Below, piece by piece: positions 62 to 8,450 of a stretch of 64,000 nucleotides of DNA; position 1 is the stretch's first letter, and every line of letters starts with the position of its first letter. The translations under genes were made by a program, and so were the position numbers. The stretch lies in NCBI GenBank assembly GCA_037968875.1, contig JBBKWI010000108.1, positions 2,305-66,304 on the forward strand, given 5' to 3'. The notes beneath the pieces are model-generated. The model was not told where the DNA came from. It saw only the letters and a list, made by a program, of their open reading frames with translations, and ran no database searches. This stretch comes from Candidatus Sericytochromatia bacterium. Lineage in GTDB: Bacteria > Cyanobacteriota > Sericytochromatia > UBA7694.

Positions 62-3000
62 TTAGCGCCGATTGCTCGGCAGCAAATATTGCCAGACGGC
101 ATGGTGGTGCATCGTGACCTCGACCATTTGGCGACTGCCCGAATGCACGATCAGGGTATTGCCATTTTCCAGGCGATGGGCCGCCGTGGGATTGGTGATT
201 TTTTTATTGCCATCATTGACATTGCCCCCGTATTGCCAGGTCACGCCCCCGGCCGGGTCTACCTCAATGACCCGGTGGTTGCGGGTATCTACGATCAGGG
301 TATTGCTATTGATCAGACGGTGCGCCCGCTCCGGGTACATCAGTTGATAAGGGCCATTGCCTGGATTTTTGAGGGTGCCGTATTGCCAGATAATCTCGCC
401 CTCGCGATTGACTTCGATCACATAGTGATTGCTCCAATCGGTGATCAAGATCGTATTGTCAGGGGTTTGCTCGGCGTAATAAGGGGCGTTCAACGGGTTG
501 ACGCCCGTGTCCCAGCCGCCAAACTCCCAGATCAATTGCTGATGCTGATTGACTTCTAAGATCCGACCGGAGTACTGATCGGTGATCAAAACCGTATTGT
601 TAGAGGTGGTGACTGCTGAGCGGGGGTGTCCGAGCAGGCCCGGCCGAGAGCCCATCACACCGCGTTCGCCGTATTGCCACATAATCTCTTTGGTCGGGCG
701 ATAGATCTTGAGTACCCGATGCTGATCTGTATCCGTGACCAGGACTTCGCTGTCTTCACGCTCAGAGAGCTCGACATGCTGGGGCCGTTCCAGATGCAGT
801 TCATGACGGGGTGATTCTTCGCCTAAGCGCCAGACGATTTGTTTTTCACGATTGACCAGAAAAACTTTATTGTCTTGCTTGTCAATTAAAGGGATCTCAA
901 TATCTGTTAGCTTGGCTTTGGCGGCTGTGTATTTCTTGGCCGCTTGCTTCGCCAATTGGTTGATATGTGAAGCCGAGGGTTTGCTTGAGAGTTCGATAAT
1001 CTTTTCGCTCTCGGCCACCTGTTGGCTATAGCCTTCTGATTTAGGCAAATTGGCGTATTGGTAGAGATACATCGGTCGCAGTAAGCGCGTCACTTCGATC
1101 ACGTAGAGTGGGCTGAATACAACGGTATTGCCGTTGCCCATGCGGATCATACGCACCGGGATAAACGAAAAGGCGCCGTCACTGGCTTTCTCGATGCCTG
1201 TATCAAAATGCCAGGCCACTTCACCATGCGGGTTGACCTCGAGTACGCGCCGGTTTTCGGAATCAGAGATCAGCGTATTGCCATTGGGTAGACGGAAGGC
1301 CTGAGTCGGGGCGTTGATTTGATTGCTTTCGGAGCCATAGCCTGAGCCCAGCTTATTGGCGGCATTGCCATATTGCCAGATAATTTCTTCGTCGCTATTG
1401 ACCTCGATCACCCGGTGATTGTCTGTATCGGTGATCAAAAAGTGGCCGCCTTTGAGGCATTGCATATCGCCGGGGCTATAGAGTCTGCCACGGGTATTGC
1501 CGACCGACGCGGTGATGCCATACTGCCAGACAATTTTGTTTTGGGGGTTGATCTCGATAATGCGGTGATTGCCCTGATCGACAATGATCGTATTGCCATT
1601 AAGCTTGCGCATGGCCTTGACGGGTCGGTGCAGACGAATTTCAGAAGACTTATCTGCCGGCGGAAACTGCCAACGGACCTGACCCGATTTGGAGACTTCG
1701 TAGACGACGTCCTGGCCAGCGTCTGCGAAGAGCGTATTGCCATTGGGCAGGCGAATCGGGTTCTGGGGCTCGAGTAATTCCAGTGGGCCGATGCCATCTT
1801 CGCCACCGATTTGCCAGTGGATCACCCCTTTATTGGTGAATTCAATGATGCGACGTTTATCGACATCATTCACTAAGAAGGTATCGGCAGGCAGATCATC
1901 GCTGCGCAAGACCTCGTCATCAGACTCAAACGAGATTTGGCTGCCTTTGCTGGGTTGAGCCGGCTGAACAGGTTGATCAAGCTCTTTGACCTGTTGCGCC
2001 AATTGCTGGACCTGGGTTTTAGGAGTGGCTTCGATCACTTCAGGTTTGCTGGGGGAGATCGTATTGACCAGTGACATAAATGTCTCTTTGGTGATCACTG
2101 TTTCAAGGGAAAACTGATTAAATAAATCCGGTACCCGCACAATCGTGTATTCAAAATTCATGAGTTCTTTGCGGGCCCGCTCGACCAATGGCTGCAATTT
2201 TTCGATCACGTTTACATCGCCAGAGACATCGATGCCCCAGATTTTTTTGAATTCGTTCAGGCAGTATTCCATCAATTGCTGATTGACTTGTTCAATCGAG
2301 ACTTGCTCCCAATCGATTTCAGGATAGCTTTTTTCGGCCTGTTCAGTTTCGTCTTCATCGTCGTCACTGACCAGTATCGGTGGCAAAGCTGTACTCTGTG
2401 GCGCAGAAATGGCTGGCGGCGTTGCCGGTGTTGCAGGTTGTTTGGCTGCCACCACCTCAGGTTCTGGTTGTTGCACCACCGTCTCGGAGGCTGAGCCTGT
2501 CGAAGCTTCAGGGTATGCGGGCCCAGGGTAGCGTTGCAGATTTTCGACCACGCCTTCAGGGGCAGTGCCCTCGAATTCAGCCCGCTGATCCGGGTTCATA
2601 TGCGAGACAATATTTTTCATGCGGGTCATGATCGTGGTGTAAAACTCACGCATGAAACGCTCAAATTCTTCTTTGCCAAACTCCAAAAAGAAGAGCGGGA
2701 TATCCGGGAAGAGCTTGCTAGCAATGGCTTCGATCTCCGGGCGACTGGGGTTGACAGCCGCGATTCTGAAGATACCGTTGAGATGATTGATTGGCACAAA
2801 TTCAAATTGCCGCAGCAGACTTTCGCGAAACTGAATCAAAATGCTGGGGTCAATTTGATGGGCGTTGAGCACCGGGTAATCTTCTTCGGGATTGCCGCGC
2901 TGCTGTTCGACAGCATCAATCTGGCGAGATTCTTGATTTCCGATCGCAAAAGCCGGGTCATCGGAGCCGGGGTGAGCATCAAAATCTGCCAGAGACAGAC

Positions 3001-4270
3001 TGGGGGCTGTTGATGCGTTGCCGCTGTAGTTATTTAAGGTTTCGTGCAGAGTCCACTCGGCTTCTTCGACATCCTGGAAGCTGATAAAGTCCATTTCTAG
3101 CAGCACATCCAGAATCGACATGTCCACCTTAAAATAGCCTTCGGGCTTGCTGATCGCAAAGGTGATATGACTGGGTTTACTATCGTCGTTGAGCAAAGCA
3201 TAACGATCGATCAATTGATACGACTGCAAATCGACGATATTGATCCAGGGCGTAAACATGGCCGGGGCATCGACATAGGTCATAAAGATCAAAAACTGGT
3301 CCTGGGGATTGACGGCCATCAAATCTGTCGGGTCATCCAGAGTTGAAAAGAGATTGCCGTGCAGGGCCACACTGCTGCGCAAAAGCAAATTCTTGGTGTC
3401 TAGCACGACGATATCCACGGTTTCATCGGGCTTGGTACTTTGCAGATAGAGCCACTGGCCATCATGGGAGAGTTTGATGCTGCCCAAAATACCGTAAGGC
3501 AACGGCTGACGTTTGATCTTGAGGTTACGCAAGCTGACGATCAAGAGCGCTGGGGTGCTATTGTCGGTGATATACAGACGTTGGCCATCGGGGCTGACAG
3601 CCAGATTGAGTGTCTTACGGGAGCCTGTCGGGCGCACCACCACTGAGCCGGTCAGCTTCATTTCTATAGCATCAACAATAAAAATCGTGCCCCGGCCGCG
3701 ATCGGCCAAAAACAAATATTTGTGATCAGGGGAGACAATCAGATCGACCGGCAGGCATTTGAGACTATTCATGGGGATCAGGGGATAAGTGAAGGTGTTG
3801 CCCAGGGCCAGATAGGGGTGCTCATCGAGTTCACCGAAATAATAATGGGTGTGGTCATCAGAAACCGTCAGGCCGCCCTCATTGTCACCGTCCCAGACGA
3901 TTTCACCGATCTCACGGGCATTGGCAGCGTGAAACAAAAACACCGAGCCGCTGCCGGTGGGCAGCCAATCTGTCGAGAGATAACGGGGTTGGTATTTGCG
4001 GGTGGTGGGCAAGGCCAGACTGCGCAGGGTCTTGCCGCTCCAGGGATCCACTTCGCGCAATTGGTAGCTTTTTTGATCCATCACATAGGCCACGGCTTTG
4101 CCCTGGCTCTGTTGGCCTATTTTATAGGAGCGCAAACGGGAAAGAGCTGTAGACAATTGCTCAGGCGAAATTTTCCCTTGTTCTAGCAAATATTCCTGTA
4201 TCAGTTGTTCCTGAAACTCGGGATTGGAGCCCGATCCACCTGCACTATTGCTCATCTGCATTCCCATCAT
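62..4270 (-). CDS. Large multi-beta-propeller protein (YVTN-type propeller plus two NHL/PQQ-like propellers) with MshEN-like, T2SSE_N-like and Hsp70 IIB-like modules
   Basis: ORF 62..4348; real start is likely among the Mets at 4270-4255 (MMGMQMSN). Blades such as LIVSPDHKYLFLAD and LAVSPDGQRLYITD; many C-terminal repeats of type P..A.RL.NGNTLI.D..N.RV.EV...G...WQY. No signal peptide seen. Confidence 0.8.
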   Translation of the reverse strand: MMGMQMSNSAGGSGSNPEFQEQLIQEYLLEQGKISPEQLSTALSRLRSYKIGQQSQGKAVAYVMDQKSYQLREVDPWSGKTLRSLALPTTRKYQPRYLSTDWLPTGSGSVFLFHAANAREIGEIVWDGDNEGGLTVSDDHTHYYFGELDEHPYLALGNTFTYPLIPMNSLKCLPVDLIVSPDHKYLFLADRGRGTIFIVDAIEMKLTGSVVVRPTGSRKTLNLAVSPDGQRLYITDNSTPALLIVSLRNLKIKRQPLPYGILGSIKLSHDGQWLYLQSTKPDETVDIVVLDTKNLLLRSSVALHGNLFSTLDDPTDLMAVNPQDQFLIFMTYVDAPAMFTPWINIVDLQSYQLIDRYALLNDDSKPSHITFAISKPEGYFKVDMSILDVLLEMDFISFQDVEEAEWTLHETLNNYSGNASTAPSLSLADFDAHPGSDDPAFAIGNQESRQIDAVEQQRGNPEEDYPVLNAHQIDPSILIQFRESLLRQFEFVPINHLNGIFRIAAVNPSRPEIEAIASKLFPDIPLFFLEFGKEEFERFMREFYTTIMTRMKNIVSHMNPDQRAEFEGTAPEGVVENLQRYPGPAYPEASTGSASETVVQQPEPEVVAAKQPATPATPPAISAPQSTALPPILVSDDDEDETEQAEKSYPEIDWEQVSIEQVNQQLMEYCLNEFKKIWGIDVSGDVNVIEKLQPLVERARKELMNFEYTIVRVPDLFNQFSLETVITKETFMSLVNTISPSKPEVIEATPKTQVQQLAQQVKELDQPVQPAQPSKGSQISFESDDEVLRSDDLPADTFLVNDVDKRRIIEFTNKGVIHWQIGGEDGIGPLELLEPQNPIRLPNGNTLFADAGQDVVYEVSKSGQVRWQFPPADKSSEIRLHRPVKAMRKLNGNTIIVDQGNHRIIEINPQNKIVWQYGITASVGNTRGRLYSPGDMQCLKGGHFLITDTDNHRVIEVNSDEEIIWQYGNAANKLGSGYGSESNQINAPTQAFRLPNGNTLISDSENRRVLEVNPHGEVAWHFDTGIEKASDGAFSFIPVRMIRMGNGNTVVFSPLYVIEVTRLLRPMYLYQYANLPKSEGYSQQVAESEKIIELSSKPSASHINQLAKQAAKKYTAAKAKLTDIEIPLIDKQDNKVFLVNREKQIVWRLGEESPRHELHLERPQHVELSEREDSEVLVTDTDQHRVLKIYRPTKEIMWQYGERGVMGSRPGLLGHPRSAVTTSNNTVLITDQYSGRILEVNQHQQLIWEFGGWDTGVNPLNAPYYAEQTPDNTILITDWSNHYVIEVNREGEIIWQYGTLKNPGNGPYQLMYPERAHRLINSNTLIVDTRNHRVIEVDPAGGVTWQYGGNVNDGNKKITNPTAAHRLENGNTLIVHSGSRQMVEVTMHHHAVWQYLLPSNRR

Positions 4271-4351
4271 CAATGATTGTGATCTTAATTCTAACGTAAA
4301 GCGCCTTCTTCTGTGGTGAAATCGCGTAAAACAGTCGCTTGATCTCAATGC

Positions 4352-5353
4352 CTATTTTGGCTGCTGCTTGTTCCAGGCCAAAAAGTCGGCTTTGATCTCA
4401 GCGGCGCTGTGTTGATCCAGATAGCCTTCAAAATCGCTGCTGGTATCTAGCTTAAATTGTTTGATTGACTGGCCCAGGGCTTTGCTGGTCAAGCCGTTCC
4501 ACTGAGAGACCAGCTTGCCATTAAATTTTATTTTGCGGGCTTCATGTGCCGCATCAGCATCAGCGTAGTCTTTGAGCTGCCCCAGCAGATCGGCCGCCGG
4601 GAAGGCGTTGTGTATTTTGATCAAATAAGGGGATTTGTCAGCGTAATATTGGTAGGCCTTGTCGGCCAGACGTTGGCTTTGTTCGGGGGCTTGCAACCAC
4701 TCCAAAAAGCAGGTATACGTTTGGCGCTTGCGATTGCGGGTCCGATTGATGCTATTGAGGTTTTCATAAGCATAGATCTGCGGGTTAAAATAACGGCTGT
4801 GGGTCACAAAGTCAAAGATTTCTTCAAGGCTGTCAAAGCCTGACTGCCAGCGGGCATAATCATAATCCAAAAAGGCGTAAATTTCGGCCGGATTTGTCGA
4901 GAGCTGGATTTTTTGGGCCCGGTGGCCGGATTCGGTGCGGATTTGGTAGCTTAGACCATCCCAGCCAAATTTGAGGCCGAGTTTATGGGCGATGCGACCG
5001 ATTAAATTATTGAGATCGTTATAGCCAAAGTAAAACTGCGCACTTTCAAAGAATTGTGGATCGACATAGATCAGATCGACCTGAAAGTCCTGATAACGAA
5101 AACTGGTGATATCTTTGTTATAGACCACATCATCAGCACCCAATTGGGCCAAGAAAACCTCAAAGTCAGCCCGTTCCGGCTGAGGTTTGCAAACCAGAAC
5201 GTCCAGATCGCCAAAGTCAGGCTTCTGGCGATAATAGGTCAGGGCTGCCAGGCGAGGGTAGATCGTCTGTAATTCTGCTAAGACATGCGCTTCAAAGGGC
5301 TTGTACTCAGAGGCACTCAGGCGTTTTAAGTTTTCAAAGGCGTTACCGCCCAT
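4352..5353 (-). CDS. PolX/Pol-beta-superfamily nucleotidyltransferase (catalytic core only)
   Basis: YRQKPDFGDLDVLV (GDxD), third Asp in FQVDLI, thumb-like YFGYNDLNNLIGRIAHKLGLKFGWDGL; GGAG SD-like sequence upstream. Confidence 0.7.
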   Translation of the reverse strand: MGGNAFENLKRLSASEYKPFEAHVLAELQTIYPRLAALTYYRQKPDFGDLDVLVCKPQPERADFEVFLAQLGADDVVYNKDITSFRYQDFQVDLIYVDPQFFESAQFYFGYNDLNNLIGRIAHKLGLKFGWDGLSYQIRTESGHRAQKIQLSTNPAEIYAFLDYDYARWQSGFDSLEEIFDFVTHSRYFNPQIYAYENLNSINRTRNRKRQTYTCFLEWLQAPEQSQRLADKAYQYYADKSPYLIKIHNAFPAADLLGQLKDYADADAAHEARKIKFNGKLVSQWNGLTSKALGQSIKQFKLDTSSDFEGYLDQHSAAEIKADFLAWNKQQPK

Positions 5354-5441: not shown

Positions 5442-6425
5442 TTAGCCTACCTGACGCTCGTTTTTAAGGACTTCGTAATGGTACTCTGTTTCACCTTTGA
5501 GATTCACGAACTCAAAATAAAGGCGGCTGGGTGAGACTTCAAACCAGCTAAAACCAAAGCTATTGTCGGCAAAGAGTGTATTGGGGCCCCGACCGACTTT
5601 GCGCTGGCCCGCGCCGCTACCGGCGATCACCTGATGCATGCCACAGAGCGGCTTAATATGCTGCTTATCGTGCTCATGGCCTGCCAGGTAAAACTGGACG
5701 GTGCCACAGAGGCCATCGATCATTTGCTTAAGGGCTGGGGACTGACTGTTTTTATAGACGGAATTGGTTTGGCGAGGGTGGTGACCAAAGGCAATGGCCC
5801 ACGGGCTCGGGTGGTTTTTTAGATATTGCTGATGGGCTTTTAATTGCACAGTATTGGGCTGGTTGGTGTCGAGGGCGACAAAGGCCACCGGACCGGCCTG
5901 GAACTGGTAGTAGCGGGCGGGCAGATACCATTTTTTGCTGTGCTGGGTATAGTTGATCTGAGCGTCGATACTGCCACGGATATCGTGGTTGCCCAGCACC
6001 ATATGAAAACGGAAGGGCAAATTAGCAAAGGGGGTTTCAAACTTGGTTTGAAACTGGGGGTCACTAACACTGCGCACACCGTCGTTATAGATATTGTCCC
6101 CCAGGGTGACAGCGAAATCACAGCCTTTGGCAGCGCATTTTTTTTGGATCGCCTGGGCCACCTGGTACTGGATCTTGGCGCCGGTGCCAAAATCGCCAAA
6201 GGCCACAAAGCGGATTACGTTTTCAGCCGCTGCGATGCTTAGCTCCTGAGAGCTGCTGATCGTTTTCGCCGGGGTTTCAGGGGCATCATTATCATCGGTG
6301 ATGGCTTGTTGACCTGGAGCACAGGCGCTGAGTAGCAGGCAAAGCCAGAGACTGAGTGTGCTTAATCCCTTTCTCGTATTGGGGCTGGCGACTGGCAATA
6401 AATGGCTGGGCATATTACACTCCAT
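5442..6425 (-). CDS. Purple acid phosphatase-like metallophosphoesterase, lipoprotein
   Basis: GDFG, GDNIY, GNHD, GHH and GHEH motifs; lipobox LLSAC. Start may be 6413. Confidence 0.88.
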   Translation of the reverse strand: MECNMPSHLLPVASPNTRKGLSTLSLWLCLLLSACAPGQQAITDDNDAPETPAKTISSSQELSIAAAENVIRFVAFGDFGTGAKIQYQVAQAIQKKCAAKGCDFAVTLGDNIYNDGVRSVSDPQFQTKFETPFANLPFRFHMVLGNHDIRGSIDAQINYTQHSKKWYLPARYYQFQAGPVAFVALDTNQPNTVQLKAHQQYLKNHPSPWAIAFGHHPRQTNSVYKNSQSPALKQMIDGLCGTVQFYLAGHEHDKQHIKPLCGMHQVIAGSGAGQRKVGRGPNTLFADNSFGFSWFEVSPSRLYFEFVNLKGETEYHYEVLKNERQVG

Positions 6426-6551: not shown

Positions 6552-8450
6552 ATGGCTTTTGAAGCTTTGCCTCTCAATATTTTATTGGGCCCTTTAAGCC
6601 CCAGTCTGGTGACCGCAGAGCAGTCTATTTGCAATCCCTTGAGCTCCTTGCATTGTCTCGGGGATTATTTTGGCCACCCCCAGATCCAAACTTTTTTTAT
6701 TGGCAGCGAAGCACTGAGCCACTTGTACCCGGCAGGGCAGACGATTCAATCGATCGTGCCTGCTGAGCGTCTGGAGCTGCCACTGCAACCGAGCTACTTA
6801 TTGCAGCCTTTACTCGACAAAATTCAGCCTGAGTTTCAGCCAGATCTGATCCTGTGGTGGGGCTTGCAATATGGTTTTCCTGATGATTTTCAGCAGGTCA
6901 ACTTGCCCAAAATCTTGATTGTTTCGGACTGGAACCCTCATCACGCCCTGCTCTCAGAATTATTTGGGGTCTTCGACTATCTGCTCTGTGATCAAAAGCT
7001 CATTCAGATTTTTGCTGCTCAGGGTCGCCAGAATTGCGCCTACTGGCCAGCGTATGCCTTTGATGCCAGTAGGGTTCCCGCTGAGACCGGTGCTGAACGC
7101 GAAATCGATCTGATCTTTGTTGGTAATCACAACCCCCACAAATACCAGCAGCGCAACCATTATTTGTCACGAATGGCGAGCTTACCTTACCGCACCCTGA
7201 TCCGCTCGGATCTCAAACACGCGGAATATGTTTGGCTTTTGCAACGCAGCAAGATCGCCTTTAATTTTGCCCTGCGTCAAGAAATGAATATGCGCGCTTA
7301 TGAGGCAGCTGCCTGTGGGGCCTTATTATTGATTGAGGCCGAGAACCTTGAAATCCAGCATTATTTGACCCCTGGCCAGGACTGTGTACTCTATACTCCC
7401 GAGAATTTTGAGCAAGTGATCGCCTATTACCTCAGTCATGAAGACCAGCGCCTGGCGATTACCCGGCGGGCCAGGCAGCGGATCGAGACACAGACCTATA
7501 CGCAGCAATTTGCGACACTCTTGCAGCGACTGCCTACAATCCTAAAAGAGATTCAGGCCCAGCCCAAAACCCTGCCCTTGAAACCTGATGTTGAGCTGTC
7601 TCGGCTGGCCCTGAGTGAGCAATTGCAACGGGCAGTTCTGGCTCTGAGCCTGGATATTCCCTTACTGAGAATTAATGCGGCGCTGCGTCTGGAAAAGTGC
7701 TTGTCACAGGTCCAGTCTGCTGAGCAACGCCTCTTGCTCTTGAATGCCCTGCTGGTCTGCCACACAGATCTGCTATTGTCGCCTCCCGAGGGTGTTTTGC
7801 CAGGCTTCGATTGGTCTCTGTCTGCACTCAGGCACGCGCTCGTTCTTTTGTCTGAATCAGAAGGCTGGCAGCCGATTGTGGTCTATAATCTGGCCTGGAG
7901 TGCTTATCTAATCCAGCAGCCCTTGGCCCAGTGGCTAGAGCGTTGGCAGCAGTTTGATTGGAATCAAGAAGCAGCGGCTCCAGCTGATCTGGCGATCTTT
8001 GTGCTGCCTTTGCGTTTTATGGGCTTTTATCAGTATTATCAGGCGGCGCTGATTTCTACTCAGCAGACGGCCCTGACCCGCTATTTGCAAATGGGTATGC
8101 TGTACTTAGCCGGACACGCAGCCGAAGTGACGACCGGTGAAGTCGCTGCCCTGGCTTGCTTTCAGGCGGCCAATGAGATCCTGCCAGTGGCAGAAATCGC
8201 TTTTGAACAAAGCCGCTTATACTTGCAAAGGGGTCAAAAAAAAGCGGCTTTTGTGGCTTTAACGACGGGTCTCAATGGCGGTGTCTTTTATTCGAGGGCC
8301 TGGTGGGCTTTGTTACAGCTAGGGGCAGAACTCTTGCCTCCAGCTGCCCTGCAAGACTTGATTCGGCAGGCGTTGACTTTGTTTCAAGATCAAAAATATG
8401 CCCCTTTTCGCAGTCGGATCCAGCAGCAATTTGGTTCAATCCAGCCCTGA
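6552..8450 (+). CDS. CgeB/Glyco_trans_1_2-type glycosyltransferase with helical (TPR-like) C-terminal half
   Basis: SKIAFNF...NMRAYEAAACGALLL motif; DLIFVG...R; Leu/Ala-rich helical C-terminus. Confidence 0.8.
   Translation: MAFEALPLNILLGPLSPSLVTAEQSICNPLSSLHCLGDYFGHPQIQTFFIGSEALSHLYPAGQTIQSIVPAERLELPLQPSYLLQPLLDKIQPEFQPDLILWWGLQYGFPDDFQQVNLPKILIVSDWNPHHALLSELFGVFDYLLCDQKLIQIFAAQGRQNCAYWPAYAFDASRVPAETGAEREIDLIFVGNHNPHKYQQRNHYLSRMASLPYRTLIRSDLKHAEYVWLLQRSKIAFNFALRQEMNMRAYEAAACGALLLIEAENLEIQHYLTPGQDCVLYTPENFEQVIAYYLSHEDQRLAITRRARQRIETQTYTQQFATLLQRLPTILKEIQAQPKTLPLKPDVELSRLALSEQLQRAVLALSLDIPLLRINAALRLEKCLSQVQSAEQRLLLLNALLVCHTDLLLSPPEGVLPGFDWSLSALRHALVLLSESEGWQPIVVYNLAWSAYLIQQPLAQWLERWQQFDWNQEAAAPADLAIFVLPLRFMGFYQYYQAALISTQQTALTRYLQMGMLYLAGHAAEVTTGEVAALACFQAANEILPVAEIAFEQSRLYLQRGQKKAAFVALTTGLNGGVFYSRAWWALLQLGAELLPPAALQDLIRQALTLFQDQKYAPFRSRIQQQFGSIQP

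Follow-up and report, generated by a model that had tools for sequence, protein, structure and literature searches.

An isolated Hsp70 subdomain IIB-like module conserved within a multi-propeller protein of Candidatus Sericytochromatia

An Hsp70 subdomain IIB-like module inside a multi-propeller protein

We analyzed 64,000 nucleotides of DNA from Candidatus Sericytochromatia bacterium (assembly GCA_037968875.1, contig JBBKWI010000108.1, positions 2,305 to 66,304), a stretch that we refer to as the window. The Sericytochromatia are relatives of the cyanobacteria that do not photosynthesize. An open reading frame (ORF) of the minus strand encodes a multi-propeller protein in which about 80 residues resemble subdomain IIB of the nucleotide-binding domain (NBD) of Hsp70. 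These residues stand between two linkers, with a putative α/β domain and a propeller region upstream and two propellers downstream (Table 1). A sequence-only reading of the window had placed an Hsp70 IIB-like stretch at positions 2060-2300 and quoted its peptide without a strand; the stretch is indeed present, lies on the minus strand, and corresponds to residues 690-761 of the ORF (nucleotides 2066-2281). Residue numbers in this text are those of the full ORF, which is counted from an upstream TTG codon. The likely true start is Met32 (ATG at nucleotides 4255-4253), which is preceded by GGGAATGCAGATG and yields a protein of 1397 amino acids that is 100% identical to the database protein P0001.

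Table 1. Features of the propeller-protein ORF and of the genes beside it in the window
Feature	Residues	Window position	Strand	Basis or description
Whole ORF, 1428 codons from upstream TTG		62-4348	-	
YncE-like β-propeller region, N-terminal	~100-400	3149-4051	-	Weak 7_blade_YncE match; source names of homologs
MshEN/T2SSE_N-like α/β domain	~494-590	2579-2869	-	PF05157
Linker 1	596-683	2300-2563	-	Pro/Ala/Glu-rich
IIB-like module	~685-765	2054-2296	-	Helix-helix-β-hairpin-helix
Linker 2	766-822	1883-2053	-	Gln/Pro/Ser/Asp/Glu-rich
Two NHL/PQQ_2/ASST-like C-terminal β-propellers	~825-1095 and ~1150-1428	65-1876	-	
333-aa ORF		4352-5353	-	Weak DNA-polymerase-β-palm/nucleotidyltransferase-like Pfam match (18.8 bits; cut-off 25)
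Metallophosphoesterase		5442-6425	-	Calcineurin-like; hydrophobic N-terminus resembling a signal or lipoprotein sequence
632-aa protein		6552-8450	+	Glyco_trans_1_2 domain

The relationship to Hsp70 was evident in four independent tests. With residues 664-793 as the query, phmmer searches of PDB chains returned yeast Ssb1 as the best match (3GL1, chain residues 240-328; E=9e-8), followed at lower significance by the DnaK proteins of G. kaustophilus (E=3.7e-5) and E. coli (E about 5e-4), and Hsp70s accounted for all of the best 60 of 115 matches. The profile-to-PDB match that had been expected from the sequence was also obtained. A profile built from the module, which we cut out of an alignment of 22 full-length homologs, matched Hsp70 in all of the best 60 of 121 cases (best E=7e-11), and its best alignment was gapless over Hsp70 residues 228-312. 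Furthermore, Pfam HSP70 (PF00012) was the sole family matched by the excised module in 22/22 members (best member, E=2.8e-8), with the segment from the window, at 23.6 bits, exceeding the gathering cut-off of 20.6.

The module is about 28-32% identical to the IIB subdomains of yeast Ssb1, human HSPA1A and HSPA6, BiP, and E. coli DnaK (residues 227-313), with which it has the motifs EFKK..G.D and ERA[KR].L in common. It differs from them in invariant features of its own, namely C696, W704, YTI, and SLET, that are not found in Hsp70s. An alignment residue for residue with both DnaK and eukaryotic Hsp70 had been suggested by eye; this description holds for eukaryotic-type Hsp70 but not for DnaK, with which a four-residue gap is needed in the β-hairpin. 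DnaK has four extra residues there (GPKH), whereas the hairpin of the module is of the short Hsc70 type.

An AlphaFold2 model of the module had a mean predicted local distance difference test (pLDDT) score of 86.2 and contained helices at model residues 14-33, 41-58, and 83-93 and strands at 63-71 and 75-82, which reproduces the IIB order of helix 8, helix 9, β-hairpin (sheet E), and a last helix. When this model was compared with the PDB by Foldseek, the best 50 matches were all Hsp70 NBDs aligned over IIB, with template-modelling scores, TM(query), of 0.64-0.76 and root mean square deviations of 1.6-2.9 Å over 75-90 columns. Residues ~685-765 are homologous to subdomain IIB of the Hsp70 NBD, and the model predicts with confidence that they fold on their own into the IIB fold. 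Two recombinant lobe II fragments, one of DnaK (5OOW) and one of Hsp70 with HspBP1 (1XQS), show that an IIB-containing part of the NBD can be a folded fragment. Both were among our sequence matches, and 5OOW was also among the fold matches. These fragments are artificial and span about 180-210 residues including IIA, whereas the module is natural, spans about 80 residues, and consists of IIB only.

The remainder of Hsp70 is missing from the protein. In agreement with the earlier claim that the other parts of the ATPase do not accompany the module, a tblastn search of the window with full-length E. coli DnaK (taken from NC_000913) matched only DnaK residues 230-284, at nucleotides 2293-2129. 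Within the whole ORF, PF00012 matched one stretch at profile positions 225-305 of 599 (18 bits, E=9e-4), and the match to the NCBIfam DnaK model was confined to positions 222-302, with 17.6 bits where the cut-off is 648. With a single stretch matched by both Pfam and NCBIfam, a complete actin-like NBD composed of IA, IB, IIA, and IIB was not found in the ORF. Neither was there a match to the substrate-binding domain (β-sandwich and lid) past profile position 305, where a linker and then the β-propellers follow instead. Relative to Hsp70, the module thus comes without the IA, IB, and IIA subdomains and without the substrate-binding domain. Its host, already suspected not to be a chaperone, is a multi-propeller protein with only the IIB part of Hsp70. 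The Pro/Ala/Glu-rich character that had been ascribed to both flanks applies to linker 1 upstream, in which 14 Pro, 12 Ala, and 12 Glu occur among 88 residues; the composition of linker 2 is given in Table 1.

The protein is probably cytoplasmic, as judged from its hydrophilic N terminus and the absence of any transmembrane-like segment (maximum Kyte-Doolittle 19-residue mean, 1.41). The α/β domain directly upstream of linker 1 scored 21.3 bits with PF05157 in the window protein, which is under the Pfam cut-off of 23.1, and relatives exceeded this cut-off (29.9 bits for P0035). The domain resembles that of MshEN/GspE-N1 (T2SSE_N) proteins but, unlike in those proteins, is not followed by an ATPase domain. 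MshEN domains bind cyclic di-GMP (c-di-GMP) through a tandem 24-residue motif, RLGxx(L/V/I)(L/V/I)xxG(L/V/I)(L/V/I)xxxxLxxxLxxQ (PMC5013675). Regulation by c-di-GMP through the MshEN-like domain was considered and rejected, as neither a strict expression for this motif nor its published relaxed form matched any family member (0/22). The N terminus, QLIQEYLLEQGKISPEQLSTALSRL (window positions ~4051-4231, minus strand), resembles one degenerate copy of the c-di-GMP helix-turn-helix motif that lacks the RLG and the Q. No PADLOC model matched the window protein, and NCBIfam gave weak partial matches only.

Linker 2 carries a conserved stretch that is short and helix-like, VQQLAQQVKE, and, directly before the second propeller, an acidic motif, FESDDEVLRSDDLP. 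At the place of VQQLAQQVKE, right after the IIB module, the more distant members P0021, P0022, and P0038 and the fragment P0050 have a CxxC...CxxC motif resembling a zinc ribbon, of which CQECKTLLLPNGRCPKCD and CIKCGKNVSKGIELCSDC are examples.

The nearest neighboring gene is the 333-aa ORF on the same strand, which had no NCBIfam match. Its end lies 3 nucleotides ahead of the TTG-extended ORF and about 96 nucleotides ahead of the Met32 start. The metallophosphoesterase and the Glyco_trans_1_2 protein beyond this ORF have no evident tie to the IIB module. We did not find a conserved operon, as the genes upstream in the window were not neighbors of the corresponding gene in two other genomes (loci L001 and L002/L003). 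Neither DnaK nor GrpE of the host was found in the window or in the other loci that we retrieved.

Conservation and distribution of the propeller-linked module

The module is under purifying selection equal to that on the other folded domains of the protein, while the linkers drift in sequence and length. Across the 22 homologs, which are about 43-100% identical overall, conservation was 0.76 for the module compared with 0.76-0.88 for the propellers, among which the two C-terminal ones (0.88 and 0.82) are better conserved than any other part of the protein. Linker 1 varied from 56 to 153 residues with a mean majority fraction of only 0.37, and linker 2 from 48 to 64 residues with a conservation of 0.53. 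Among the approximately 80 positions of the module, 19 are invariant (C696, E699, F700, K702, I703, W704, G705, D707, A725, E728, L729, Y734, T735, I736, S747, L748, E749, T750, and T753) and a further 15 are nearly so. Prominent features of this pattern are W704, the Trp of KIWGID at the helix 8 tip, all of the β-hairpin (YTI...SLET), and, on helix 9, ERAR.

Full-length homologs were found in metagenome-assembled genomes labeled Candidatus Sericytochromatia, Blackallbacteria, and Obscuribacterales. A pattern scan of 185,579 species, each represented by one genome, detected 10 loci, all in Sericytochromatia, Blackallbacteria, or ‘Cyanobacteria bacterium UBA7694’. We also searched 1.84 billion representative proteins exhaustively with the module profile by HMMER, which produced 514 matches at E≤1e-3, of which we inspected the best 150. 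The propeller proteins other than Hsp70s among these 150 (P0006, P0022, P0032, P0035, and P0038) all have the architecture described here, which is thus repeated in the more distant members P0032, P0035, and P0038. P0038 keeps the IIB module but has no MshEN-like domain and a single C-terminal propeller, and it may be a truncated gene call. Six other long matches to the profile (P0030, P0031, P0036, P0045, P0054, and P0128) did not have an isolated IIB but were Hsp70s, either full or tandem, and another match, P0125, was a low-complexity repeat artefact.

The short hairpin form of the module was present in 134 of the 150 inspected matches. The named Hsp70s among them were eukaryotic-type (P0034, P0044, P0057, and P0060, from Meloidogyne, Reticulomyxa, and Nyctotherus or named ‘heat shock protein 1/8’), and the module has both the short hairpin and the LF of the DSLF motif in common with the best-scoring eukaryotic-type proteins. 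We did not take these best-scoring relatives as evidence of a eukaryotic donor lineage, because the comparison covers only about 85 residues and the profile penalizes the DnaK indel.

Co-chaperone contact positions in propeller-linked and TIR-linked modules

All known nucleotide exchange factors contact Hsp70 at IIB (PMC2940730). In E. coli DnaK, the IIB residues within 4 Å of GrpE in structure 1DKG are L257, Q260, R261, E264, N282, P284, and Y285, and 13 of the 20 GrpE-contact residues of this structure lie in IA and IB (PMC2940730, Table S1). These two subdomains, which contribute about two-thirds of the GrpE interface, are absent from the propeller protein. In M. tuberculosis DnaK, the E236A/Y257A substitutions block GrpE binding and function (PMC10803776), and cooperation with ClpB, whose M-domain possibly contacts IIB as the sole subdomain in that species, is lost with M229A and also with Y257A (PMC8209680). 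We mapped the M. tuberculosis residues to E. coli by a constant offset of +28, an inferred correspondence that places all three on 1DKG contact residues (E264, Y285, and L257).

Only one of the seven IIB contact residues, P284, is identical in the module of the window protein (P740; Pro in 15/22 family members). The equivalent of L257 is N713, at a variable polar position occupied by Glu, Ser, Lys, Asn, and others, and those of Q260 and R261 are E716 (Glu or Asp in 18/22) and K717 (Lys, Arg, or Thr in the family). Three replacements are themselves near-invariant: E264 corresponds to P720 (Pro in 19/22), N282 to R738 (Arg in 21/22), and Y285, in the hmmalign alignment, to D741 (Asp in 21/22), although MAFFT places a gap there. 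The positions probed by mutagenesis in M. tuberculosis are therefore those that in the module have become Pro (E264), Asp or a gap (Y285), and variable polar residues (L257). Likewise, the hydrophobic and aromatic residues on which ClpB docks (M. tuberculosis M229 and Y257) are not kept, their places being taken by the variable N713 and by D741 or a gap. Considering that these contact residues are replaced and that the hairpin is of the short form, the module does not mimic the co-chaperone face of DnaK. It may still bind some partner in the chaperone network through a different surface.

The sequence-only reading had also suggested a search for other proteins with an isolated IIB, and this search uncovered a second architecture. 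The inspected profile matches included P0039, and a search for its homologs added P0184 and P0185. In P0039 (326 aa; locus L016, 6746-7726), a TIR_2 domain at the N terminus (84 bits) precedes two tandem IIB modules, which PF00012 matched in two stretches with 133.6 bits, the best at profile positions 213-303. P0184 (343 aa; locus L015, 8001-9032) likewise consists of TIR and two IIB modules, and its gene lies on a complete chromosome of Desulfobacter sp. (record CP054837.1, 6.04 Mb); P0185 (395 aa) combines TIR with one IIB module and a hydrophobic tail. The name given to P0184, ‘Hsp70 family protein’, points to a hazard for annotation, as this protein has no ATPase.

Like the propeller protein, the TIR proteins contain a natural IIB without the rest of the NBD, but IIB is fused to TIR in proteins of 326-395 aa rather than to propellers. 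With E. coli DnaK IIB, their modules share 50-69% identity and align without gaps, and they have the long DnaK hairpin. They also keep the GrpE and ClpB contacts, with Met or Phe at 257, R261, mostly E264, P284, and Phe at 285. The TIR proteins are an independent capture of IIB and show that this subdomain is portable, a point that also favors the adaptor reading given below. A decoy role appears more plausible for them, and they could possibly be chaperone-mimicking sensors or decoys tied to a TIR effector. Models of defense systems matched only the TIR part of these proteins, and there was no obvious defense island in the neighborhoods of their genes that we inspected.

Candidate roles of the stand-alone IIB domain

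From the observed homology, isolation, conservation, and loss of DnaK-type contacts, we infer that the module is an exapted, autonomously folding IIB that serves as an adaptor for protein-protein interaction, tethered flexibly and with a lineage-specific surface, a reading to which we assign a probability of roughly 0.55. IIB would have been excised from an Hsp70 gene and fixed as an autonomous domain of ~80 residues in an ancestor of Sericytochromatia, and the linkers would tether it flexibly within a cytoplasmic multi-propeller scaffold. The invariant residues would lie at those sites of Hsp70 that nucleotide exchange factors touch, with a chemistry unlike that of DnaK, and their pattern fits a binding surface that has been re-specified. 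Due to this different chemistry, GrpE or ClpB engaged by mimicry of DnaK is most likely not the partner; a protein specific to the lineage, or a different domain within the scaffold, is more likely.

Several points weigh against this interpretation. We identified no partner of the IIB module, and since gene neighborhoods differ between genomes, context gives no hint of one. Autonomous folding rests on an AlphaFold2 model with a shallow alignment of 22 sequences, and no solved structure of IIB alone was among the matches, the shortest Hsp70 chains, at about 180-210 residues, being the fragments of lobe II. In addition, the invariant residues were placed by alignment to Hsc70, so that their position at the surface rather than in the core is presumptive. 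The equivalent of Y285 is ambiguous between D741 and a gap because of the hairpin indel, and the conserved aromatic residues F743 and F746 lie close by.

One alternative is that the tethered IIB acts as an intramolecular latch, docking on a propeller face of its own protein or on the MshEN-like domain to control access to it, so that the invariant surface would be internal to the protein. The long flexible linkers that always flank the module and the constant presence of the same, extremely conserved propellers are compatible with such a latch, but P0038 retains IIB with one C-terminal propeller and no MshEN-like domain, unless its gene call is truncated. We regard a latch as unlikely. The module may otherwise be a spacer or relic, a compact folded bead between linkers that binds nothing specifically and is left over from a gene fusion. 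That we found neither a partner nor a ligand, and no gene context that is conserved, would agree with such a role. However, a relic would not be expected to hold so many positions invariant or nearly so in homologs as divergent as 43% identity while the linkers around it drift. In the alignment to Hsc70, the invariance of W704, in the loop after helix 8, and of both hairpin strands goes beyond the usual needs of fold maintenance. A spacer or relic therefore seems to us an improbable explanation as well.

A broader possibility, which we consider speculative and rather improbable, is that IIB is a naturally portable ‘handle’ that was lifted from Hsp70 at least twice. In the propeller protein, the handle would plug the scaffold into the chaperone network through its re-specified surface. 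This could occur by either of two routes: the module could be bound by an exchange factor or a ClpB variant particular to the lineage, or it could complete in trans an actin-fold partner that has no IIB of its own. The GspE-N1-like domain next to the module is of a class whose members bind actin-fold proteins, for example GspL of type II secretion. The near-canonical IIB of the TIR proteins would, on the same assumption, be a decoy or sensor coupled to the TIR effector.

The sequence-only reading had proposed that the module is a decoy or tether for GrpE, and the corresponding proposal for the ClpB M-domain would be that IIB presents the docking face of DnaK and thereby sequesters either partner or recruits it to the scaffold. 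This idea draws on the general use of IIB by exchange factors (PMC2940730) and on the possible restriction of ClpB contacts to IIB in M. tuberculosis (PMC8209680). A predicted cytoplasmic location and the retention of the helix-9 equivalents of E267 and K270 as Glu/Asp and Arg would also accord with it. The contact residues themselves, with a single identity among seven, are not conserved, and the losses include the equivalents of E264 and Y285 needed for GrpE and of L257 and Y285 needed for ClpB. Moreover, 13 of the 20 GrpE contacts belong to the missing IA and IB, the hairpin is four residues shorter than that of DnaK, and the TIR-linked modules, which keep the contact residues, indicate how a mimic would look. 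The proposal thus did not withstand the comparison, and we consider a GrpE or ClpB decoy in the propeller protein decidedly unlikely.

In Hsp70, adenosine is sandwiched between IIB and IIA. A sensor of adenine nucleotides, in which the helix-9 E-R-A-R/K motif would bind the adenosine moiety as in Hsp70, is the least credible role and very improbable: of the nucleotide-contact positions of IIB helix 9 (Hsc70 E268, K271, R272, and S275; PMC2940730), those equivalent to DnaK E267 and K270 and to Hsc70 R272 read Glu/Asp in 19/22, Arg in 21/22, and Lys/Arg in 21/22, respectively, but S274/S275 is replaced by Met, Leu, or Ile in 20/22 members, and the phosphate- and Mg-binding elements of IA, IB, and IIA are all absent.

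IIB is the ‘adjustable handle’ through which every class of exchange factor and ClpB/Hsp104 control Hsp70, and to our knowledge it has been studied until now only as part of the ATPase. Neither a stand-alone IIB domain nor this architecture was described in the searchable literature that we consulted, and none of the libraries that we searched recognized the module as a separate domain: apart from a weak match to the NCBIfam DnaK model, it matched only Pfam HSP70, a full-length model. The fold and its origin are already known; what is new is an independent, conserved IIB domain in a non-chaperone architecture. Domain databases now label IIB-only domains as weak Hsp70 matches or as ‘Hsp70 family protein’. 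A natural and conserved stand-alone IIB shows that this subdomain is a separable folding and interaction unit in evolution, and it offers a minimal natural scaffold with which to study or engineer the recognition between IIB and its partners. Together, the two unrelated architectures with an isolated IIB, one divergent and linked to propellers and the other near-canonical and linked to TIR, suggest that there is a small, unrecognized class of ‘IIB-only’ domains.

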